From UHGV virus genome UHGV-0098759: DNA of 35,139 nt; one strand, written 5' to 3'. The stretch comes from a virus. How positions within the stretch are numbered: position 1 is the stretch's first letter; each line of letters starts with the position of its first letter. The position numbers and the translations under genes were made by a program. Shown here piece after piece: positions 13,730 to 34,888 of the stretch. The notes beneath the pieces were generated by a model that was not told the origin of the DNA, made no database searches, and was given only the letters and a program-made list of their open reading frames with translations.

Positions 13730-14128
13730 TTACCCCAATTGACCGCTCTTGAGCTTTTGTAATAATGAAGCGTCGAAATAACTATCAACCAAAGCAGAGT
13801 TACGTTCTTCCTCTTTCTTACGAGCAATTTTTTTTATTTCTTCTTGCGTTTTAAATTGCTTGTCGTCCTTAATCATTCGGAATTGGTTAACATTGATTTT
13901 ATTCAACCATTCACGAGTCATGTTAGGAGATGTAACGTGCATGTAATACATCGACTGTGCATGTCGCGCATCTTGATATAGGGGGCTTTGTGGTTCAAGA
14001 TATGTATCGAATATATGCAACGCCCAAAATAGCGTAATTGGCATATTATCCATCTCATCTTTACTCAAGCCCCGACGCATCATTTGCCGAAAATAAAAAT
14101 TCAAGAGCGGGTTTACTTTACCTCGTTT
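13730..14128 (-). CDS. tail assembly chaperone T-like frame, probably expressed as a G-T fusion by -1 frameshift
   Basis: This frame is open from 14128, has no SD-preceded ATG (track start is TTG 14104), and is -1 relative to the G frame; G GTA AAG lies just before the G stop. Confidence 0.45.
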   Translation of the reverse strand, partial: KRGKVNPLLNFYFRQMMRRGLSKDEMDNMPITLFWALHIFDTYLEPQSPLYQDARHAQSMYYMHVTSPNMTREWLNKINVNQFRMIKDDKQFKTQEEIKKIARKKEEERNSALVDSYFDASLLQKLKSGQLG

Positions 14129-14421
14129 TCAATTACCGCCGCATCTTTCATCAATGATGCTTGAGCAACTAAGCCGATTAATTCGCTGCGGACGCTAGTA
14201 TACAGTGCCTTAACTTGTTCAATAGATTCAAATACTGGCTTACCGTCTTCATCTTCAATACAACGAAGAATAGAGCGTTCATCGCGGTCTTTTTTATCAG
14301 TATTGAAAACATGTTCATTAAATTCTTGCACCGACATAGGGCGAGCATAGAACGTAAATCCGCCGAGGGTTAAAGATTCACGTTTCGGAGAAAGAGCTTT
14401 CAGCATTTCATTCAGATTCAT
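14113..14421 (-). CDS. tail assembly chaperone, lambda G-like
   Basis: 102-aa acidic protein directly upstream of the T-like frame and tape measure; RBS GAGGA. Confidence 0.5.
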   Translation of the reverse strand: MNLNEMLKALSPKRESLTLGGFTFYARPMSVQEFNEHVFNTDKKDRDERSILRCIEDEDGKPVFESIEQVKALYTSVRSELIGLVAQASLMKDAAVIENEVK

Positions 14422-14466: not shown

Positions 14467-14973
14467 TTAAGAGATTTTCAAAGTCTGCTTAGTGCCAGTT
14501 TTCTTAATATTTGTTAGGAAAGCAGCCGGAGGATTGCTTAACCAATAGTAATGAAAACCACTTTGCATACTGTTATAAGGAACAGTGACAGCAGCACCAC
14601 CCAAATTAACGGTTATATTCCCCGCTCTACCGTTCTGGAGATATACAGCCATAGTAGGAGTACCGCCATTGAATTGACCAACGATAACGCCAACCAGACG
14701 CCCTACGCCCACGTTTTCGGGGTTCTCCATAGATCCTTTGCTTTGCATACCGGAAACAGGATAGTTTGAAGCAGTTACACCCCAGTTATTACCCAATGAA
14801 GTAGACCACGATGCAGTAGCTACAACCGTATCCATACCACGACCAGCCATTGCCGACATATTACGCGGAGCCGGAACTTTTAAAGCTGTTAATGCTTCTT
14901 TCATCCATCGCTTACCCGTCACCGATACAGCAGATGACCCGATCCAGCCAGGAACTTTAACGACATTTGCCAT
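14467..14973 (-). CDS. hypothetical Gly/Ser/Ala-rich tail-region protein
   Basis: ORF with GGAG RBS; lies between the tail-tube-like gene and the G chaperone. Confidence 0.45.
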   Translation of the reverse strand: MANVVKVPGWIGSSAVSVTGKRWMKEALTALKVPAPRNMSAMAGRGMDTVVATASWSTSLGNNWGVTASNYPVSGMQSKGSMENPENVGVGRLVGVIVGQFNGGTPTMAVYLQNGRAGNITVNLGGAAVTVPYNSMQSGFHYYWLSNPPAAFLTNIKKTGTKQTLKIS

Positions 14974-14993
14974 TTTGATTACTCCAATAAAAA

Positions 14994-15020
14994 AGCCCCA
15001 CCATTAAGGCAGGGCTTAAA
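14994..15020 (-). terminator. intrinsic terminator after the tail-tube extension (AGCCCUGCC-loop-GGUGGGGCU, then U6)
   Basis: Stem contains G-U wobbles only when read on the minus-strand RNA; homologous in sequence to the terminator at 20926-20955. Confidence 0.55.
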
Positions 15021-15021
15021 A

Positions 15022-15147
15022 TTAATTCTTAGCCTTGCGGCCTCGTTTTGCTGTGGCTTTCGCCGTAACTTCTTCTACTTCTGGAATCACCACCGCTTCA
15101 TGTTCCGGCAGTGGTTCCGGTTCTGGTAAAGGAAGTTCTTCGTTAGT
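15022..15147 (-). CDS. in-frame post-TGA extension of the tail-tube protein (38 codons; ...EVEEVTAKATAKRGRKAKN)
   Basis: TGA at 15148-15150 is followed by 38 sense codons in frame ending at TAA 15022-15024; no ATG inside; homologous to the capsid extension. Confidence 0.5.
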   Translation of the reverse strand, partial: TNEELPLPEPEPLPEHEAVVIPEVEEVTAKATAKRGRKAKN

Positions 15148-15621
15148 TCATCCGGCAGTGAAGATTTGCTGTTTCAGCGGAGCACCATCAACAGCAAAGG
15201 TAAACTCTTTCGTTACCACTTCTTCATCGCCACCGTTCATAGCAACTTTAGAGATGAAGCCGTTGAAAGCTGTGCGAATACCAGTCTGTTTTGCTGCATC
15301 TACATAGTATTCAATCTTAATCTGAATTCGAGTACCGTCTTCGGCAGCTTTAATGAGCTTCTCGTGTACCGCATCACCAGGAATGTAGTTAACGGTCAGA
15401 GTCAGATCAGGAACGTTCAGTTTACCTACCAGCTTACGGTTATACTGAGAAGAGAAGGATTTAACTTCTACAGTGCCGCGCTCGATACCAGTTTCAGGAA
15501 AACCAGCACACTCTTTAATTTCTTCATAGCTTTCATGTGCAAGATTGGTGTTAGTGGTATCGGCGTGATAGAACATACTTACCAGACCACCAGTAAAAAT
15601 ATCTTTAAATTGCTGAGACAT
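15148..15621 (-). CDS. tail tube (major tail) protein-like, paralogue A
   Basis: 157 aa; canonical position upstream of the G/T chaperones; paralogous to the N-terminal 165 aa of the 19357..20190 product (shared DIFTG, LTLT.N, AED.T blocks); RBS AAGGGG; ends in TGA. Confidence 0.55.
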   Translation of the reverse strand: MSQQFKDIFTGGLVSMFYHADTTNTNLAHESYEEIKECAGFPETGIERGTVEVKSFSSQYNRKLVGKLNVPDLTLTVNYIPGDAVHEKLIKAAEDGTRIQIKIEYYVDAAKQTGIRTAFNGFISKVAMNGGDEEVVTKEFTFAVDGAPLKQQIFTAG

Positions 15622-15678
15622 AGAATTACCCCTTAATTAAAATTGTTTATAACGGGGGAACTAGTCCCCCGACTTTTA

Positions 15679-18600
15679 TTATTTAGTTGCTTTCAGTTCG
15701 GCAATTTCTTTCTGTAATGCTTCGATCTGTGTTTTATATTTGGCGTCCATTTCCTGCATAGCTTTAATAATCAAGGCATTAACAGCAGAGTTAGAAATAG
15801 TCTTGATTGCTTCCGGTTGTTCTGGATCTTCTGTGGATTGAATACCTACTGCTTCCGGCAATACTTTTTCCAGATCCTGAGCAATAATACCTACTTCGCG
15901 TTTAATCACCGTGTCATCGGAAAGAGATTTAACTTTATCGTAGGTGTAGACTTTCAGTGAGTTTACTTTCTCTAATGCACCGTCCTGTAATTCTTCCTTG
16001 TTAATCTTCAAACGGGAGTCAGAGCGAATGTAAACATCGTTAAAGCTACCGTTACGACCTGCGCTAAAATCACCCGCAGCGTTAAAGTCAAAGTTGGCGT
16101 CGTGAACGTTTAGGCGAGCTAAAGCATTGGTAATAGTACCACTAGGAACATGCACACCCATTGCCGCAATATGATATTTTCCCCAATGAGTCGCTTTCCA
16201 GATGTTATGAGCGGAATCGGTTGAGTTCGGACAGTCTACGAGGATTCCGGCAGAACGATCACGCCAGCTAGCCCAGCTACCACCAGCAACATTACCACGA
16301 ATCAAACCTTTATCAGACCCGCCGACAGTCCCCGCCTCAAGATGAATCATTTTATCAGCAAGTTTCCAAGTTTGACCTTGTTTCTGACCACGGAAGCGGA
16401 TAACACCAGCATCATCGCAGTACATCAAACCTAATTCTAAACCGTTCGGATCTCTAAACCATAAATGCTTATTACCACTGCGACGAAACTCAATATCAGC
16501 ACCGCCAACCTGTATATTGCTCGCAGTTTTTAATGTACCAGCAACAGAGAACAGGATAGGACCAGTTCCACCGTTTGTACGTTCGGTATACCAATGATAA
16601 CTAGTAGCATCCTTACATTCAAAAACCTGTTTGCGTTGCTCGTTACCCCATGTATGTAAGGTAAATTGAGACGCAGATCCACGATTAGCATCAAAGGCAA
16701 TCTCACCGGATTCTACACGCACGAAGCCTTTAAAACGTGCTGTGATATTGCCAGTACCCATAGCGCGTTCAGTGGTAAAGTGTGCACCCTGACTGTCTTC
16801 AATCTGTAGGATGTTATCGCGAGCGTTATTACTATCGCCCCAATGGTTAAACCGGAAGTAATCGCGGGATTGTCCAGCACCAGCATCAAATGTTAAATGT
16901 TGACCTTTGATGTAAGCGTTGCCAGAGAATCGAGCGGCCTTGCTTGCGCGTTCTAGAGTTAATACATCTTCGTTTCCATCACCACCTAATTGAACGTTAC
17001 CGGAAGTAAGATCGTAGATAAAAGGTCGATATGTATTCCAACCACCAAATCTATCATTTTCGGCAGTAGACAACAGATAAACTTTACCACCATCATTTCG
17101 CCAGAATGCACCATACTTACCGTAAATCATACGGAATGCATCAGCGTTAGCGGAATAATATTGACCATTGGTATATACAATTTTTGTTTTTCCTGTAGTC
17201 AAATTTACTTGTCCACTACCTTCCAAATCAAATGAGTTAGCACCAACATCATTACGCCACACAAAACCATCACTAGTACCATCCGCATGACCGATATAAC
17301 CACTACGTTGGTTTTTACCATCACGACGATCCCACCACGCCATATATGCAGCTTGACCAGTCTGTCGATGTAAAGTCATCGCATTACCACTACCGTGCAA
17401 TTCCATTTTACCAGTAATTACATATCCTTTATAATTACCCGGTATTGCACTATTAGAATCAATTCTAATAACTTCTGTAGAATCTGTAGCACCAGTAGCA
17501 AGACGATATACAGCACCCTGAACGGTTTCATGCCAAACCATTTCGTTATAGTTGCTACGGAATTTACGAATATATTTCCGTCCAGTACCTTTATCATTAC
17601 TTAGATGAACAATGTCATAGCTGTTTTGTGTGTTATCATCAAAACTTAACACACCACGTTTATTTTCAGTATTAAAAAGAGTTACGTTGCGACCACCGAT
17701 AACACCAACGGAAGGTTTAATTAACGTGGCTTCCGGCGTATCATAAACCGTCAAACTTACATAAACAGATTTCCCATATTCGACAATAACGTTATCGGTA
17801 TAACGCTGATATTTCACGTAGATATCATAGTTATCACCGGAAGTATTGACAGCAAATACCTCAAAATCTTTGTTTGTATTTCTACGGTATGCAATTACGT
17901 TAAGACCTTTAGGTCTATCGTTACCACTACGCAGAAGAATTTCTACTACGTCAACCTGATCATATGCCGTAACGTTGTAACCATTACCACCATGAATACG
18001 GAAAAACACACTACGCCCGTTTTGTGGAATTGTTGCGGTTGCCAATTTGAAATATGCAGATACGTTTTCGCTAGAATTGGGAACAGACATAACGACGTTT
18101 TTAACAAACATCTTATCAACTTCGGCTTTGGTGTATGCACCAATCTCGCCAGGAGTCGGCTTATCACCTTCGTGATACATCTTATAGCTAAAGTTCTTCT
18201 GTCCTTCTCTATCAAAACCATAGGTTTCAACACGAGATCCACCAGATGCATAACGGAAAGTAAATCCGCGACCGTGCGCTTTACCGGAAGAGTGAGGAAC
18301 GTTAAGAGTTAGATCCATGAGTCCATCTTGACCATTGGTACGGAAAGCACCAAAGTAGTTAAGATCTCGTGATGTCTGGTCTTCCAGATAGTTAGCTGTC
18401 TTGCTTAACAGATACCCACCATGCTTAGTATTGGTATTCTTCTTGATGTAAAGAGCATCATTGCTACCTTCAATACCATCAATTCGTTTGTTAGCGGCTG
18501 CAATTGCGGCATCAGTAGAAGATTTATTCTGGTCTACCTTGTTGTTAATTGCGGTATGGTTGCTATTAACAGTGCCAGTAAGATTGGTAATCTTAGTATC

Positions 18601-19281
18601 CGCGTCTTTCTTATTGTCGGAAACAGTCTTTTCGATCGCTGTCTTGTTAGCTGCAACCGTGCTAGTTAAGCTAGAAATTTTGTTATCTGCATCGGTTTTA
18701 TTTGCAGTAACAGTTTTAGTTAAGTTGCTAACGTTGGTGTTAGTGGTATTAACCTTGTTGTTAATCGCGGTGTTATTGTCAGTGACCGTTTTCGTTAAAG
18801 CTGCATGTTTGCTATCTGCATCAGATTTGTTTGCGGCAACGGTTCTTTCAATTGCGGTCTTATTCGCAGATACGGTCCCCGTAAGGTTATTGATCTTAGT
18901 GTCGGCATCGGTTTTATTTGCCGTAACTGTCTGGGTTAAGTTACTAACAGTGGTGTTGGTAGCATCAATGCGCTTATTGGTCGCTGTATCTTTCGTGGTA
19001 ATAGTCTGATTCAGTTCAGCTTTAGCACTAGCCAGATTATTAGCGGCCTCTTGTTTGTTGGAAGCAATAACACGGTCAGTGCTAGTTTTGTTATTGTCTA
19101 CTTTCGTGTTTAAAGCATTATGACTTTCTGGGGAAACGCTGATTTGAACTACTGCGTTATTTTTGTCTTTGGTGTAAATTACATGGTCTGCCATCTGAAT
19201 AGCGATTTCACCGACCTGTAATTGTTCCGGCGTTGGTTTTTTACCAGCCGTTTGTGTGCGTTTAAATTGGATTGATTGCAT
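15679..19281 (-). CDS. long tail fibre with heptad-like shaft repeats and C-terminal intramolecular-chaperone-like domain
   Basis: 1200 aa; N-terminal third has repeats of type TVTANKTDADTKINNLTGTV; C-terminus (...SDSRLKINKEEL...IEALQKEIAELKATK) resembles self-cleaving chaperone domains of phage fibres; KPTP.EIGA motif at N-terminus and internally. Confidence 0.75.
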   Translation of the reverse strand: MQSIQFKRTQTAGKKPTPEQLQVGEIAIQMADHVIYTKDKNNAVVQISVSPESHNALNTKVDNNKTSTDRVIASNKQEAANNLASAKAELNQTITTKDTATNKRIDATNTTVSNLTQTVTANKTDADTKINNLTGTVSANKTAIERTVAANKSDADSKHAALTKTVTDNNTAINNKVNTTNTNVSNLTKTVTANKTDADNKISSLTSTVAANKTAIEKTVSDNKKDADTKITNLTGTVNSNHTAINNKVDQNKSSTDAAIAAANKRIDGIEGSNDALYIKKNTNTKHGGYLLSKTANYLEDQTSRDLNYFGAFRTNGQDGLMDLTLNVPHSSGKAHGRGFTFRYASGGSRVETYGFDREGQKNFSYKMYHEGDKPTPGEIGAYTKAEVDKMFVKNVVMSVPNSSENVSAYFKLATATIPQNGRSVFFRIHGGNGYNVTAYDQVDVVEILLRSGNDRPKGLNVIAYRRNTNKDFEVFAVNTSGDNYDIYVKYQRYTDNVIVEYGKSVYVSLTVYDTPEATLIKPSVGVIGGRNVTLFNTENKRGVLSFDDNTQNSYDIVHLSNDKGTGRKYIRKFRSNYNEMVWHETVQGAVYRLATGATDSTEVIRIDSNSAIPGNYKGYVITGKMELHGSGNAMTLHRQTGQAAYMAWWDRRDGKNQRSGYIGHADGTSDGFVWRNDVGANSFDLEGSGQVNLTTGKTKIVYTNGQYYSANADAFRMIYGKYGAFWRNDGGKVYLLSTAENDRFGGWNTYRPFIYDLTSGNVQLGGDGNEDVLTLERASKAARFSGNAYIKGQHLTFDAGAGQSRDYFRFNHWGDSNNARDNILQIEDSQGAHFTTERAMGTGNITARFKGFVRVESGEIAFDANRGSASQFTLHTWGNEQRKQVFECKDATSYHWYTERTNGGTGPILFSVAGTLKTASNIQVGGADIEFRRSGNKHLWFRDPNGLELGLMYCDDAGVIRFRGQKQGQTWKLADKMIHLEAGTVGGSDKGLIRGNVAGGSWASWRDRSAGILVDCPNSTDSAHNIWKATHWGKYHIAAMGVHVPSGTITNALARLNVHDANFDFNAAGDFSAGRNGSFNDVYIRSDSRLKINKEELQDGALEKVNSLKVYTYDKVKSLSDDTVIKREVGIIAQDLEKVLPEAVGIQSTEDPEQPEAIKTISNSAVNALIIKAMQEMDAKYKTQIEALQKEIAELKATK

Positions 19282-19299
19282 CTAATCACCTCACATAAA

Positions 19300-19325
19300 A
19301 CAGGAATAAGGGAGGCGTTAACCTC
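19300..19325 (-). terminator. hairpin (GGGGAGG-UUAACG-CCUCCC) with U-rich tail between the 277-aa gene and the fibre gene
   Basis: Perfect 6-7-bp GC stem read on the minus strand, followed by UUAUUCCUGUUUUAU. Confidence 0.4.
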
Positions 19326-19356
19326 CCCGCGTCATGTTTTATTTAGGTAAGCAATC

Positions 19357-20190
19357 TTAATACTCACCGAAGTCGATTCTATCAGTCTTAGCCACTGCGC
19401 CAATTTCGCTAGGTGTCGGTTTCTCATTGGTGGAATATACCTTGATCCATTCAGAGCGACCGTTTTCCTGAATATTTCGGACACGTAAACGTGGTGCACC
19501 GGAAGTATTACAGGTTAATTGCCATGCGCCATGCTCATTAGCTTGAAGGTGAATTAATGATGTATCAGCACCATAAGGGTTAGTGCTAGCCGTTCCTTTG
19601 TAGGTTACGAAGCGGTTTCCTGTCAGAGATTCACTATCAATAGGTCCGGTGAATGGGCTAACGCCTGAGCCTACGCCATAATCCCCTTGTCGCAGAATTT
19701 TTCCCTCGGTCGCTATACCCCTTGCTAGAATCCCGCCATCTGGTTCAAGTTTAAATTCCAGTGTTACAGCTTTGTTATCACTACCACGGGTTTTATGTGA
19801 TGTGACGTAAGCATCGAATATACAAAAGTACCCTGTGTTAGCAGCACTATAGCCAGAGTTCACAACATAGAACATACGGAAGCGTAAAGGTGTTTTATCC
19901 TCTACCGCTTTCATCAACATTGCTTGATGTTCATCGTCAAGAACACGGTTTAATGTGAGTGTTGTCGGTTCCAGTCTACGATAACCAGCAAGTTTCCCCG
20001 TAGCGTCCTGATCGTACTCTTCCAGAGTTTCTATCTCTGTGGATTCGGTTAGCGTAGGGAATGCTGCGATGTTCTCCATAGAACTAAAGCTAGGATCGAA
20101 AAAGTCGACCTGATTGTCTATCTGGTTAGAGATCGACACTTCAACATGTGATCCAGTGAAAATATCTAAGTTATCTTGTGTAATATTCAT
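19357..20190 (-). CDS. tail-tube-like protein, paralogue B, with C-terminal fibre-repeat domain
   Basis: N-terminal ~165 aa paralogous to the 15148..15621 product; C-terminus ends with KPTPSEIGAVAKTD, the same motif found in the adjacent fibre; RBS AAGGGG. Confidence 0.5.
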   Translation of the reverse strand: MNITQDNLDIFTGSHVEVSISNQIDNQVDFFDPSFSSMENIAAFPTLTESTEIETLEEYDQDATGKLAGYRRLEPTTLTLNRVLDDEHQAMLMKAVEDKTPLRFRMFYVVNSGYSAANTGYFCIFDAYVTSHKTRGSDNKAVTLEFKLEPDGGILARGIATEGKILRQGDYGVGSGVSPFTGPIDSESLTGNRFVTYKGTASTNPYGADTSLIHLQANEHGAWQLTCNTSGAPRLRVRNIQENGRSEWIKVYSTNEKPTPSEIGAVAKTDRIDFGEY

Positions 20191-20199
20191 TATTACCCC

Positions 20200-20622
20200 T
20201 TAAAAACGCGCTAGATAAGAAAATTTAAGGCTAAGTGTCCCAACGATACCCCCATCACTAGAATCATCGTCATAATCGGTATTAGAAGCTACTGGAGTGA
20301 TATCTGAAATAGAGAAGCCCAAATCTTTAAATCGTGGGTTATCCGGCTGAATCTGGATTATCTGGCAAATACCCTCATGGATTTTTGTTTCATGAATCTG
20401 AGAATATAATTGCATTTCGATAACGCATTCAGCTTGCATTGCATTACCACCACGGACCCTAGTGTAAGTCTCATTCATGCCAGTAATCCAACAAACCACG
20501 TCATCACTAAAACCTTGCTGAGTTTGTTCTACGTTTAAAGCCAGACCTAAATCTTGTTCGATAATATCTTGCAAGGCGCGTTTGATTTTCAGTCTAGGCA
20601 TATTATTAACGGTAGCGAGCAT
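20200..20622 (-). CDS. head-tail joining or tail completion protein (hypothetical)
   Basis: Position between the capsid and tail genes; ATG at 20622 with RBS AGGGGG preferred over the track start at 20670, which overlaps the upstream ORF by 65 nt. Confidence 0.45.
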   Translation of the reverse strand: MLATVNNMPRLKIKRALQDIIEQDLGLALNVEQTQQGFSDDVVCWITGMNETYTRVRGGNAMQAECVIEMQLYSQIHETKIHEGICQIIQIQPDNPRFKDLGFSISDITPVASNTDYDDDSSDGGIVGTLSLKFSYLARF

Positions 20623-20896
20623 GTGTACCCCCTGCCAGAGTAATAAAGCAATCAGTGGTATTATCACCATTGCGCTTAACGTATTGAACTTTGAAACGCT
20701 GATTTTCTACAGTGACAATATCACCCTGCTTTAAGTCTCCCTCACGACAAAATAGAAATTCTGTCTCTGTCATTACCCCTGATTCGTCGGTAGTAGTAAT
20801 TTCATGATAAGCACGAATTGATTTACCACCTTCCACCGAAAATACAGGAGCACTCTTAAACATTCTTGATAATTGTGATTCTGATAATTTGAACAT
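20606..20896 (-). CDS. head-tail connector or head completion protein (hypothetical)
   Basis: 96 aa immediately after the capsid gene; RBS AAAGGGGG. Confidence 0.45.
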   Translation of the reverse strand: MFKLSESQLSRMFKSAPVFSVEGGKSIRAYHEITTTDESGVMTETEFLFCREGDLKQGDIVTVENQRFKVQYVKRNGDNTTDCFITLAGGTHARYR

Positions 20897-20925
20897 AGTT
20901 ACCCCCTTTATGGAGTATTTACATA

Positions 20926-20955
20926 CAAAAAAGCCCCGCCAATAACGGCAGGGCT
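20926..20955 (-). terminator. intrinsic terminator after the capsid extension (AGCCCUGCC-GUUAUU-GGCGGGGCU, then U6)
   Basis: 9-bp stem with one G-U wobble formed only on the minus-strand RNA, followed by a T6 run. Confidence 0.6.
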
Positions 20956-20960
20956 AATTA

Positions 20961-21089
20961 TTATTCTTTAGTTTTACGCTGTTTTTTAGCTGTGGCTTTC
21001 GCCTTAACCGTCTGGGATTCTTCTTCCGGTTCAGGAATCAGATTTTCTTCCCCCAAATCGGGGGAAGGTTCAGATGGTTCTACAGGAGT
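20961..21089 (-). CDS. in-frame post-TGA extension of the major capsid protein (43 codons; ...IPEPEEESQTVKAKATAKKQRKTKE)
   Basis: TGA at 21090-21092 is followed by 43 sense codons in frame ending at TAA 20961-20963; no ATG inside; Pro/Glu-rich linker then basic AKATAKK tail. Confidence 0.5.
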   Translation of the reverse strand, partial: TPVEPSEPSPDLGEENLIPEPEEESQTVKAKATAKKQRKTKE

Positions 21090-23090
21090 TCATTCAGCGG
21101 AGATGTGAAGAACTTTCAGGGCTTCCGGCTGAGTAACAACATAATCCAGGTCTACCCAGATTCGCGGAACGATAGCAGACTGTGCGCGGTAGGTAGTGTC
21201 GTCCATATCCAGTTCCAGACCGCCCCACTCACCAATGGTGATACCGTCGAACGCGCCCAGAACGATGTGGTCTGCCGGGATAACACCAGAAGTAACTACT
21301 TCGTAACCAGCCAGTTTGCCGTTTTCGATGATATAACCGGAAACGCCGTTATCTTTCAGGGTAGATTCCAGTTCAGCAGCAGTTGCACCGCTCATCGCAA
21401 ACTTGATCGCCTGAGCAGGAACGCCAGCGTCGGTCAGTGCTGCAATTTCTTTCAGGAAGTCTTTGTAAGAGAAAGCGGCTTTCTTAGTAACGCGACCCGC
21501 GTCTACCAGTTGCTTAACCAGACCAGCCGGACCACGAGCATTTTCTTTATCAGACAGAATCAGTTGTTCCAGTTTGATCCGAACAGATTTGTTAATGTGA
21601 TCGGTGATCAGGGTAGCAATATTCGGAACAGTTTTCAGAGACTGACGGCTGATCGGGTTGCCACCAGCAAAAGTTTTCGGAGCCATTTTCACGTTTGCAA
21701 ATTCAGCTTTGCTTTCCGGTGCAGCACCGTTTTCATCAACGAAACCGAAAGCATCAACGCTGGAAGTAGTCATTTTCGGTACAGCAATCGGAGCATTCAG
21801 ACCAGACAGAACAGTCACACCGAGGCGGCCTAAAACACTCTGAGGCAACAGCATTTCAACATAGGATTCGGTCAGCAGTTTTTCGTCAGTTACAGCGGTC
21901 AGAGTAGCTTTGGTGTTACCTTCGGAAGCAGCACGCAGAGCAGCAGCCGGAACGAATACAGAGCCACCGCGAGCAGCACGACCACGCTGCATTGCAGCAC
22001 CAGCAGCCATAGCGGAATATTCAGCTTCGTTAGCACCCAGAGCAGCACCATCTACCAGAGAGCGAATTACGTTGTTCAGGTCAAAAGTTTTTTCCATTTT
22101 AGAGTCCTTAATTTGTTCGTTATTACGTTGAGCATTGGTAATGTTATTTAGTGCCTTAGTGCGGAATGCTTCCGGCGTCATGTCTTTAACTGCCAATGCG
22201 CGTTCTAATTCTTCGTCGTTAATATTTAGCTCGCGAGCGATCTCGCGAATTTCTAATTCGTCTTCTTCGGAACGTTCAGCCACTTCTTCGATTTTTTCTT
22301 CTTCAACCGGAGCGGCTTCACGTTCTTCTTTTACTTCTTCTTCCCGAACAGTTGAACTATCATCATCAACACTTTCAGGATGTTCAGCGTCTTTTCCGTC
22401 TTCGAGATTTTCATTTTCTTTATTCTCTTCAACTTGGCGCTCTTGAGTTTCTTCAACTTCCGGTTCTTTAATTTCTTCTACCGGAGTTTCTTCAACCTGA
22501 GCGGGTTCTTGTTCTTCTTTGATTTCTTCGATTTGTTCTTTAGTCATATCGCGTTTAGCCTCCAAATTAACTGTGATAGTATTTAGAGAGCGATTTAAAC
22601 CGACCGTATCGTCTGCGGGAACGGTGACAAATGAGAGTTCATAGGGTGCCCACTTAGTAACAATCAATTGTCCTTTGGTGTAGTCGATGTGATATTCTTT
22701 AATGTCATAACCGACAGAAATTTTTTCCATCGTACCTTCAATGACTTTATTACGAATATCATTAGCCAAAGTGCCATGCTTGGAGAATTTAACCAGAGCA
22801 CGACCTACGTTATCCGCATCGATTCGAGCGTTACAAACGACACCAATGTGATTATCGAAATTATGATTGAACAGCAACGGAGCGTTATTATTCAGACGAG
22901 ACAGATCAACCGCTTCCGGTGTATGTACCAGAATTTCATCTAATACCACCATTTCTTGATTTTGCTCATCCCAGAATTGGCGCTGATAAGGCTGTTCACT
23001 GGAGAAAGCAATTTCAAATTCGTATTGATCATTCTGCCCTTCGTTAATAACTCCACCGTAACCGTTAAGATCGCGGCGAAATTTAAGCAT
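21090..23090 (-). CDS. fused prohead protease - scaffold-like linker - major capsid protein (HK97-fold)
   Basis: N-terminal ~190 aa carry prohead-protease motifs (PLLFNHNF, SVGY, ELSFVTVPAD); acidic Glu/Lys/Pro-rich middle; C-terminal ~330 aa capsid-like; RBS AAGGTGA; ends in TGA. Confidence 0.8.
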   Translation of the reverse strand: MLKFRRDLNGYGGVINEGQNDQYEFEIAFSSEQPYQRQFWDEQNQEMVVLDEILVHTPEAVDLSRLNNNAPLLFNHNFDNHIGVVCNARIDADNVGRALVKFSKHGTLANDIRNKVIEGTMEKISVGYDIKEYHIDYTKGQLIVTKWAPYELSFVTVPADDTVGLNRSLNTITVNLEAKRDMTKEQIEEIKEEQEPAQVEETPVEEIKEPEVEETQERQVEENKENENLEDGKDAEHPESVDDDSSTVREEEVKEEREAAPVEEEKIEEVAERSEEDELEIREIARELNINDEELERALAVKDMTPEAFRTKALNNITNAQRNNEQIKDSKMEKTFDLNNVIRSLVDGAALGANEAEYSAMAAGAAMQRGRAARGGSVFVPAAALRAASEGNTKATLTAVTDEKLLTESYVEMLLPQSVLGRLGVTVLSGLNAPIAVPKMTTSSVDAFGFVDENGAAPESKAEFANVKMAPKTFAGGNPISRQSLKTVPNIATLITDHINKSVRIKLEQLILSDKENARGPAGLVKQLVDAGRVTKKAAFSYKDFLKEIAALTDAGVPAQAIKFAMSGATAAELESTLKDNGVSGYIIENGKLAGYEVVTSGVIPADHIVLGAFDGITIGEWGGLELDMDDTTYRAQSAIVPRIWVDLDYVVTQPEALKVLHISAE

Positions 23091-28164: not shown

Positions 28165-28194
28165 AAAAGCCCCTGAAATTCAGGGGCAAAAATT
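28165..28194. promoter_or_regulatory. palindrome GCCCCTGAA-A-TTCAGGGGC containing one copy of the TTCAGGGGCAAAAAT iteron
   Basis: Perfect 9-bp inverted repeat whose right arm is identical to the iteron unit of the 30541-30716 array; lies between convergent genes. Confidence 0.5.
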
Positions 28195-30399: not shown

Positions 30400-30540
30400 A
30401 ATATCTTTTTGGTTATTTGTTGTTTTTGGTTTTACACATGAGCGTAGCGAATGTGTTATATAATATCTATGCACGCCCAATTCCCCGTTTTTGCCCTCAC
30501 TAACTTAATGTTTTATAAAGAGTTTTTCTTACCAATCCTT

Positions 30541-30716
30541 TTCGGGGGCAAATTTCAGGGGCAAAAATTAGATTTTCAGGGGCAATTATTGGCATTTCAG
30601 GGGCAAAAATGAGGGGCAAAATCACTGTTTCCCAGAATTTCAGGGGCAAAAATAGTGGGTTTCAGGGGCAAAAATGGGATGTGAAATCTAGGGGATTTTG
30701 GTTCAGGGGCAATTTT
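30541..30716 (+). repeat. iteron array: about 8 direct copies of TTCAGGGGCAA(A/T)(A/T)AT at roughly 21-bp spacing
   Basis: Copies start at about 30541, 30554, 30575, 30596, 30612 (partial), 30639, 30661 and 30702; an inverted partial copy lies near 30485-30498. Confidence 0.8.
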
Positions 30717-34093: not shown

Positions 34094-34888
34094 ATGAAAA
34101 ACATTATCGCTGCTATCGTTCTTTCTGCTACTGCATTCGGTGCTAATGCTGCATCCTTCGATTGCACTAAAGCTACTACCAAATCAGAGAAGTTTATTTG
34201 TGCTAATGAGTCAATCTCCGCACTGGACTCTAAACTTCATGAAGTATATGTTAAGGCTGTTAAGATTGATCCGTCGCTTAAACAAGAGCAACGCAACTGG
34301 AATAAAACTGTTCGTGATACAATGATCAATATCGGGCAGATTCAGCCACTGGAGGCTGTATACAACGCTCAAATCCAAAACTTGATGGATGTATTATCTA
34401 AAGAAGAAACCGCGTCAGAAAGCGATTCAGAGACTTCTGCGAAGGTTGAAGAAGAACAACCGAAGGCAGTAGAAACTCTAAAAACCAAAGAGAAACAAGT
34501 TGTTCTGGAAAAGTCCCCAAATAGCAACTTCGTATATATTTGTCCGAAAGTAGTTAAGATAACCACAATTGACGGACTGAGTGTAGAAGATCGTGATATA
34601 GTGAAAGAAAACACAAAAATTGTAATCGATAAAAACAAAGACAAGGCAAAACTTCTAATTTCTGGAACGATGCACCCCCCAGTTGTAGTGGAAATGAATA
34701 TTGACGCTGATGGATTCATGTCAAAAACTACAAAAACTGGTGTAGAGTTATACGCACAACACGGAAAAACATATTCCGGTGATAAGATGGTTGATGATGT
34801 AAGAACACTGGACTATCATCATATTTATGTTGACAACCGTACCGGAAAGGAAATCGAATGGAAATATTCTTGTGTAGAGAAAAAATGA
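34094..34888 (+). CDS. secreted protein with LprI-like (lysozyme-inhibitor-like) N-terminal domain
   Basis: Signal peptide MKNIIAAIVLSATAFGANA, then SFDCTKATTKSEKFICANESISALDSKLHEVY matching the LprI-type pattern as recalled; signal peptide resembles that of the 1119..1538 product. Confidence 0.55.
   Translation: MKNIIAAIVLSATAFGANAASFDCTKATTKSEKFICANESISALDSKLHEVYVKAVKIDPSLKQEQRNWNKTVRDTMINIGQIQPLEAVYNAQIQNLMDVLSKEETASESDSETSAKVEEEQPKAVETLKTKEKQVVLEKSPNSNFVYICPKVVKITTIDGLSVEDRDIVKENTKIVIDKNKDKAKLLISGTMHPPVVVEMNIDADGFMSKTTKTGVELYAQHGKTYSGDKMVDDVRTLDYHHIYVDNRTGKEIEWKYSCVEKK

Follow-up and report, generated by a model that had tools for sequence, protein, structure and literature searches.

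The window, the whole 35,139-nt stretch of UHGV virus genome UHGV-0098759 analysed here, is an Escherichia coli prophage in which the genes for the major capsid protein and the tail tube protein both end in TGA and are each followed in frame by an open extension. The window is 100% identical to DNA of E. coli strain PI7, where the prophage is integrated beside yncJ, with a serine recombinase. Of 5,426 complete E. coli genomes, 58 have a match to its capsid gene. Neither of the stretches that follow the TGA of the capsid gene and of the tube gene is annotated in RefSeq. The two loci contain the following features, with lengths of proteins in amino acids (aa).

21090–23090, minus strand: prohead protease–major capsid protein fusion gene, 666 aa; Pfam Peptidase_S78 and Phage_capsid; PHROG 617 (major head protein), E 1e-92
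20964–21089, minus strand: capsid extension, 42 in-frame sense codons TPVEPSEPSPDLGEENLIPEPEEESQTVKAKATAKKQRKTKE; Pro/Glu-rich acidic linker, then basic tail KAKATAKKQRKTKE
21047–21067, minus strand: predicted 8-bp hairpin CUUCCCCC-GAUUU-GGGGGAAG in the capsid extension, beginning 22 nt past the UGA
20985–21002, minus strand: shared core in the capsid extension, GCGAAAGCCACAGCTAAA (AKATAK), holding the mini-hairpin GGC-GAAA-GCC
20958–20963, minus strand: tandem TAA TAA closing the capsid extension, 5 nt ahead of the terminator stem
20925–20955, minus strand: intrinsic terminator behind the capsid extension, 10-bp stem and T run
15148–15621, minus strand: major tail (tube) protein gene, 157 aa; PHROG 158 (major tail protein), E 1e-20
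15025–15147, minus strand: tube extension, 41 in-frame sense codons TNEELPLPEPEPLPEHEAVVIPEVEEVTAKATAKRGRKAKN; acidic Pro/Glu linker with an IPEVEEV motif, then basic tail TAKATAKRGRKAKN
15046–15063, minus strand: shared core in the tube extension, second copy, GCGAAAGCCACAGCAAAA
15022–15024, minus strand: TAA closing the tube extension, followed one codon on by another in-frame TAA
14988–15017, minus strand: intrinsic terminator behind the tube extension, homologous to the capsid-extension terminator

Profile matches and operon position bear out the identities of an HK97-type capsid with fused protease and a siphophage tube. Among solved structures, the capsid protein is closest to that of roseophage R4C (8GTA), of which a T=7 head holds 415 copies. 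The tube protein scores 28.2 bits against Pfam TTP_11, just below the cut-off of 28.4. Its homologues are named phage tail tube protein in RefSeq, and the gene lies just upstream of the chaperone and tape-measure genes.

A preliminary description of this DNA had placed both stops in the context G[A/G]A TGA ACT. The capsid gene ends GAA TGA ACT (TGA at 21092–21090, then A) and the tube gene GGA TGA ACT (TGA at 15150–15148, then A), as described. The extension lengths given there, 43 and 38 codons, are corrected to 42 and 41; the rest of that observation holds. Neither extension has an in-frame ATG, and each closes at TAA and meets a homologous terminator. An open in-frame reading frame thus begins right after TGA-A at both loci and ends at an efficient TAA or TAA TAA, and the other two frames of both extensions are blocked by stops within 0–20 codons. 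Both extensions lie in frame 0, so a frameshift is not what would attach them in the window. The length of the in-frame run past each late-gene stop is of no use as an outlier test, as neighbouring genes often share a frame.

The two extensions had also been described as alike in sequence, and they share the 18-mer GCGAAAGCCACAGCWAAA, which occurs exactly twice in the window against 0.05 copies expected by chance. A repeat finder pairs 14989–15069 with 20928–21008. Between the capsid and tube copies the basic residues are kept, through synonymous codons (CGT/CGC, AAA/AAG twice) and one conservative Lys-to-Arg exchange (AAA/CGA), though 12 of 27 nt differ. The terminators behind the two extensions are the two top-scoring terminator-like sites between 13.5 and 23.5 kb. 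The late operon otherwise uses TAA, as had been noted: 20 of its 22 genes end in TAA, and only the capsid and tube genes end in TGA.

Relatives were collected as 39 capsid loci, comprising 33 IMG/VR contigs (capsids 90–100% identical), two loci reached by protein look-ups, and four with a capsid only 39% identical. Tube loci with an extension number 15 of the window's type and at least six more from a motif scan of viral contigs, one of them clearly divergent; about one third of the matches in that scan were chance matches. The scan found the TGA-extension module solely behind capsid and tube genes of the prophage's family. A 19-mer scan of bacteria at one genome per species gave chance matches in unrelated taxa only, and the E. 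coli representative there is without the prophage. The tail-fibre gene is the only window gene that matches phage records (about 80% to gp37 of RB49-type T-even phages). The nearest capsid among cultured phages is that of DCP80, 46% identical, whose gene ends in TAA.

TGA with A at +4 is found in 39/39 capsid loci and at least 20/20 tube loci. The preceding codon varies in the capsid genes (GAA/GAG/GAC/GAT), though the stop and the +4 A do not, and the codons before the tube TGA vary as well (GGA/GCT/TCT/GGT). The capsid extension is open in frame in all 39 loci, with lengths of 28, 33, 42, 43, 44 or 45 codons. The tube genes of the window's type, type A (15 plus at least 6), all have TGA-A and an in-frame extension of 36, 39 or 41 codons. 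Tube genes without the extension comprise 12 of type B (about 58% identical) and 4 of type C (73%), and all 16 end in TAA or TAATAA. The capsids that are only 39% identical, also from E. coli, carry the same TGA-A, extension and terminator, and one copy has an in-frame 27-nt deletion.

At least eight insertion or deletion (indel) events separate the extensions, and all are multiples of three (48, 27, 3, 6 and 3 nt in the capsid extension; 6, 18 and 3 nt in the tube extension), which has p about 1.5e-4 under a simple one-in-three null. Terminator loops a few bases downstream of the capsid extension have 1- and 2-nt indels among the relatives and therefore serve as an internal control for non-coding change here. 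Conservation at the nucleotide level only, with frame-breaking indels, had been named in the preliminary description as the pattern that would tell against readthrough; it was looked for in the 39 capsid and at least 20 tube loci and was not found. On these comparisons the reading frame of the extension is kept open in register with the gene ahead of it, and TGA and the extension occur together.

No sense-codon (fused) version of the window-type extensions was found in a 5.8-billion-protein collection, where no capsid match covers the extension. The absence is consistent with selection for a rare long form, or against tailing every subunit. One apparent natural fusion, the 198-aa protein P0001 with W at the tube stop, was rejected: the DNA of its contig (L036, an ENA metagenome) has TGA, and P0001 is an artefact of gene calling with translation table 4 on a short metagenome contig. 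Such code-4 artefacts could mislead searches for natural mutants that fix the readthrough.

Relatives outside E. coli were reached through tube homologues and a capsid profile. Some carry a similar basic tail fused directly to the protein. In Salmonella the capsid ends in KVEASKAK and the tube in PASGLRK; Edwardsiella and Proteus tubes end in NVIPEAVAAKEK and HLNLVKEK; and several metagenomic capsids end in AEAKSKA, AEAKAAKQ or ETRKAK. More distant capsids (32–36% identical) have no tail.

A third arrangement is a basic-tail reading frame that crosses the capsid stop in the -1 frame. It is found in L041 and L078 (Edwardsiella), L044 (Proteus), L080, L084, L086, L091 and L001 (DCP80), with tails such as KARVIPTGREEVSVKSGRKPKTDN, KDGVISQAVGSEVSVKKAKKAKAE and KKDGSLTDTGAQAAPVRKPRALKVTK. 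The -1 frame of these capsid genes is open for just 19–37 nt upstream of the stop, and a Lys codon preceded by A lies inside that span. Candidate slip sites are A-AAG and A-AAA, 3–4 codons ahead of the capsid stop, and L086 has a full dnaX-type A-AAA-AAG. The -1-frame tail is a candidate for -1 frameshifting that would yield tailed capsid subunits of a similar kind. The capsid TGA of Edwardsiella and Proteus is also overlapped by a GTG (GTGA) that is in frame with the tail, so a coupled small open reading frame (ORF) is an alternative reading there. A spread across fusion, leaky in-frame stop and -1 frame would be expected for a real C-terminal appendage whose dosage is tuned by lineage.

The window has its own pair of tail-assembly chaperone genes, 14113–14421 and 13730–14125 (minus strand), in the layout of lambda G/GT, with the second ORF in the -1 frame and open across the first stop. 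At 14116–14121, GUA-AAG stands right before UAA; its A-AAG is the motif shared with the -1-frame capsid tails of the other genera. GUA-AAG-UAA appears to be where the -1 shift of this pair takes place.

Low-level UGA readthrough, presumably by tRNA-Trp, probably gives a few capsid and tube subunits that carry an acidic linker and a polycationic tail. This was the reading offered in the preliminary description, and the kept TGA-A, the open frame, the triplet indels and the TAA of genes without the extension argue for it. Most ribosomes would stop at UGA-A and release a normal capsid or tube subunit. A small share, perhaps about 1% or a few percent, would insert an amino acid at UGA, presumably Trp from near-cognate tRNA-Trp, and would go on for 42 or 41 codons to a strong TAA (TAA TAA behind the capsid extension). 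With Trp inserted, the capsid product spanning the UGA would read ...VLHISAE-W-TPVEPSEPSPDLGEENLIPEPEEESQTVK. The long subunit would thus add a flexible, acidic, proline-rich linker and a tail rich in lysine and arginine. Tail tubes typically hold a couple of hundred subunits, and from this and the 415-subunit T=7 relative a few tails per virion would be expected on both head and tail. Of the stop codons, UGA is the leakiest. In E. coli, tRNA-Trp misreads UGA most when an A follows it (PMC5289835), and in readthrough of UGA there Trp-tRNA competes with release factor 2 (PMC10570021).

Substitution patterns were compared through the ratio of nonsynonymous to synonymous differences (pN/pS) from pairwise Nei-Gojobori counts. 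The ratio is 0.43 for the whole tube extension and 0.35 for its last 22 codons, against reference values of 0.23 for the C-terminal 190 codons of the capsid and 0.29 for the next gene. An ungapped estimate for the tube gene was misaligned (pS 0.53, pN 0.36) and was discarded. The codon-level conservation proposed as a check in the preliminary description is therefore seen in the tube tail (0.35 versus neighbours at 0.23–0.29), and only weakly in the capsid linker (0.72). By these ratios the linker is weakly constrained as protein, and the tail is constrained about as much as neighbouring genes. The capsid extension has a raw diversity of 0.066, far under the synonymous diversity of the flanking genes (0.16–0.25), and is therefore not drifting neutrally; its own synonymous diversity is 0.083.

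The tail variants are all basic despite strong nucleotide differences: KKQRKTKE, KKERKTKAK, KK[AV]GRPPKAK(E), KRGRKAKN, KRSRKAKD and KRGRKPKE. Against the AT-hook profile PF02178 (cut-off 17.4 bits), the window tails KKQRKTKE and KRGRKAKN had no match and the KKVGRPPKAK relatives scored 13.3–14.2 bits. The extensions, 28–45 residues of low complexity, match no Pfam domain, Ig-like (immunoglobulin-like) or other, which agrees with the contrast drawn in the preliminary description to frameshift-attached Ig-like domains. Within the core, the mini-hairpin GGC-GAAA-GCC (three G-C pairs and a GNRA tetraloop) is unchanged at synonymous positions in about 60 sequences. That invariance could reflect an RNA signal, gene conversion or chance.

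Several points weigh against readthrough or limit it. The capsid extension is only weakly coding-like, with pN/pS of 0.72–0.73 and 12, 17 and 17 variable sites by codon position. The core ACGGCGAAAGCCACAGC and the hairpin at 21047–21067 are unchanged even at synonymous sites, which points to constraint at the RNA level, gene conversion or recent spread of a cassette. No structure common to the long-capsid, short-capsid and tube variants was found at a fixed distance from the UGA; predicted hairpins lie at differing distances, with differing sequences, in the three variants, while the +4 A is conserved. There is thus no recognisable stimulator beyond that A, which may merely reflect a conserved Thr/Asn codon. 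To judge from the type-B and type-C tubes, which lack the extension, the tube at least can do without it. Recombination at the stop codon could by itself have produced the in-frame junction on the heterologous capsid. A nucleotide search of a phage collection gave no cultured phage close to the window. Finally, the case draws its good support from comparative genomics: we infer readthrough, its efficiency, the incorporation of long forms into virions and their function from sequence.

Among the other explanations, the one that survives best takes the conserved stretch for a duplicated RNA module of the 3' untranslated region and terminator (a stabiliser, a processing site or a small RNA), with the open frame incidental. 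On its premise, the module would sit behind the two most highly expressed late genes. The lack of variation in the core GCGAAAGCCACAGC and the 21047–21067 hairpin, even at synonymous positions, fits such a module; the hairpin stem is the same in all long capsid variants, one of which has a single loop change. So does the folding of the capsid 3' region, which is better than that of shuffled sequence (z -5.2, with the terminator contributing), and so does a synonymous diversity in the capsid extension below that of the flanking genes. The A-rich tail, read as sequence, also resembles Hfq-binding ARN runs. An RNA element would leave it unexplained that every indel in the extensions is a multiple of three, against indels of 1–2 nt in the terminator loop next to them, and that TGA tracks the extension and TAA its absence. 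The tails differ in nucleotides yet stay basic (QRKTKE, ERKTKAK, GRPPKAK, RGRKAKN, RSRKAKD), the type of peptide recurs in other genera on unrelated nucleotides, and Rfam gives no match. We regard this explanation as unlikely; an RNA role on top of coding may exist.

A separate small basic peptide, made by internal initiation at TTG, GTG or CTG or by reinitiation after the TGA, is less likely still. Candidates for its start exist, namely a TTG-started 31-aa ORF at 20961–21056, the GTG GTG ATT CCA in the tube extension, and the GTG that overlaps the capsid TGA in Edwardsiella and Proteus. None is a conserved in-frame start: at IPE, capsid variants read CTG ATT or GAA ATT, and the TTG of other loci is TCG in L034. 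Nothing like a Shine-Dalgarno sequence stands ahead of any candidate, and the TTG falls within the predicted hairpin. An independent ORF need not keep the upstream frame, free of an intervening stop, in about 60 of 60 cases, and the direct fusions of Salmonella and Edwardsiella place the tail on the C-terminus.

Two further explanations are very improbable, and about equally so. In one, translation matters and the peptide does not: a ribosome that reads through would mask the 5' arm of the terminator stem, let RNA polymerase run on and so set a downstream expression ratio. Uninterrupted translation up to a terminator suppresses termination, and in both copies about 5 nt separate the stop of the extension from the terminator stem. 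Stops near terminators are, however, common at ordinary gene ends, and the idea would need tight coupling of the leading ribosome to the polymerase. It also leaves unexplained the basicity of the tail across divergent variants and genera, and the fused tails. In the other, the extension is a decaying remnant, a formerly fused tail cut off by a nonsense mutation, with the downstream frame not yet degraded. The Hafnia-type L045 looks like such a truncation (...PAGV TAA AKSKD TAA, where relatives have ...PAGAEAKSKA), and tube types without the extension are viable. A remnant is hard to reconcile with a state shared by two genes and by two capsid backbones that are unrelated, across about 60 loci with many substitutions; with at least eight in-frame indels and no frameshift or in-frame stop in those loci; and with a stop whose codon and context are in every case the leakiest, TAA and TAG never being used.

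Selenocysteine insertion is unsupported: no structure is shared just after the UGA and there is no Rfam match, with no dedicated bacterial model of the selenocysteine insertion sequence applied. A tRNA scan found no tRNA gene in the window, hence no suppressor tRNA. Reassignment of the code (tables 4/25) was rejected, as every late gene reads intact under table 11 and agrees in length with its homologues. The ATGA overlap at both stops was rejected as a coupled start; the -1 ORFs read MNSCRTI and MN, and relatives do not keep the ATG.

If UGA readthrough occurs at these genes, its nearest parallel is the coat protein of phage Q-beta. There a UGA followed by A is read as Trp about once in 15 times, about 12 copies of A1 are present per virion, and the extension begins as a proline-rich segment that forms a polyproline helix (PMC8067240). 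The host (E. coli), the UGA-A and the minor C-terminally extended coat subunit are alike, the last being predicted in the prophage. Q-beta differs in being a T=3 single-stranded RNA virus with a globular extension of 196 residues that is required for infection. The prophage is that of a tailed double-stranded DNA (dsDNA) phage, and its extensions are 28–45 low-complexity, probably disordered residues on two structural proteins, dispensable at least on the tube.

Frameshifting yields long forms of capsid or major tail proteins in T3 and T7 (gp10A/10B), Lactobacillus phage A2 and Listeria phages A118, A500 and PSA (PMC5009743). As in A2 and the Listeria phages, a minority of C-terminally extended subunits would occur on both the capsid and the major tail protein. 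Those phages use -1 or +1 frameshifting, and many of their extensions are Ig-like, whereas here the extension is in frame behind a stop and matches no domain. Distant relatives of the prophage do seem to use the -1 route, as those phages do.

In luteoviruses and poleroviruses the readthrough extension starts with a proline-rich tract. Stop-codon readthrough gives these viruses a minor component of the capsid (PMC9553062). They differ from the prophage as eukaryotic plant RNA viruses that use UAG, long-range RNA stimulators and a large functional readthrough domain. Retroviral Gag-Pol is made by readthrough in some lineages and by -1 frameshifting in others (PMC5009743). The prophage family is like it in having interchangeable routes to a fused product (fusion, UGA and -1), and differs in that the proteins and their purpose are unrelated and the -1 route is only predicted.

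Ig-like decorations such as the lambda gpV C-domain, SPP1 gp17.1* and T4 Hoc are similar as accessory C-terminal appendages on head and tail that are often non-essential. They are thought to mediate weak surface adhesion. They are folded Ig-like or FN3 domains of about 80–100 residues, whereas the prophage extension is a charged peptide with no domain. T7 10B and the C-terminal Ig-like domains of capsid and tube proteins are exposed outward, and by analogy the tails would be expected to face outward on both structures. A +6/+7 tip at the end of an acidic, proline-rich spacer suggests weak electrostatic binding to lipopolysaccharide, capsule or DNA. That the polycationic tails adhere weakly to such anionic surfaces is a tentative proposal, and this role would echo the one suggested for the Ig-like decorations.

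To our knowledge, minority longer capsid or tail subunits in tailed phages are known only through frameshifting, and selected stop-codon readthrough in bacteria is essentially the textbook case of Q-beta. No report of stop-codon readthrough in structural genes of tailed phages was found in the open-access literature, an absence that is weak evidence. The broader picture, to which we would give even odds, is that this family of temperate enterobacterial siphophages puts a few polycationic, partly AT-hook-like tails on head and tail by three interchangeable routes: fusion, -1 frameshifting at A-AAG-type sites and, in E. coli, programmed UGA readthrough. On the literature found, selected readthrough would be new to the structural genes of tailed dsDNA phages, and it would act on two genes at once through a shared mobile cassette of TGA, extension and terminator.

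If true, this would provide a second natural bacterial readthrough model, in a common E. coli prophage, and a natural display site of a few copies per virion on head and tail. Annotation pipelines would miss such products, because both stretches are unannotated in RefSeq. The family would also allow fusion, readthrough and frameshifting to be compared as answers to one dosage problem. A testable question is raised: what purpose a few cationic tails per virion serve.

The remaining observations concern neighbouring genes and other parts of the prophage. In the capsid gene, the linker between the protease and capsid domains (22299–22529) is extremely acidic, internally repeated and rich in Glu, Pro and Val. 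It is reminiscent of a scaffolding or delta domain, and its composition is like that of the acidic linker of the extensions.

The tube gene and its extension sit here between a 1200-aa tail fibre (15679–19281), whose DNA is about 80% identical to gp37 of RB49-type T-even phages, and a gp38-like adhesin (14467–14973; Pfam Gp38_N, PHROG 1121). In an Edwardsiella relative the adhesin stands directly behind the fibre. A 277-aa protein (19357–20190) has an N-terminal domain of the tube's family (PHROG 158, E 1e-8; about 30% identity by tblastn) and a C-terminal KPTPSEIGA motif like motifs of the fibre protein here. This protein may be another tube-like paralogue, one that serves to anchor the fibre.

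RefSeq marks the large terminase of the PI7 prophage, which is otherwise identical (locus L035, 24325–26351; 25224–27137 in the window), as frameshifted with an internal stop. Ahead of the 637-aa ORF, the PI7 copy of the locus has 113 bp more. Because the window's 637-aa ORF matches a 635-aa Salmonella homologue, the mark may be an artefact of annotation.

Five to six copies of TTTCAGGGGCAAAAAT lie at 28171–28193 and 30540–30690, four of them inside 150 bp at a spacing of 22–43 bp. The array is in the early/regulatory region near a Rha-family regulator and resembles an iteron or operator set.

Two genes, one at either end of the prophage, open with a 33-nt stretch that is 91% identical (1119–1151 and 34094–34126). 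The shared start encodes a signal-peptide-like MKK/NIIAG/AIVL, and one of the genes is a homologue of LprI-family lysozyme inhibitors. The two may be paired moron genes.

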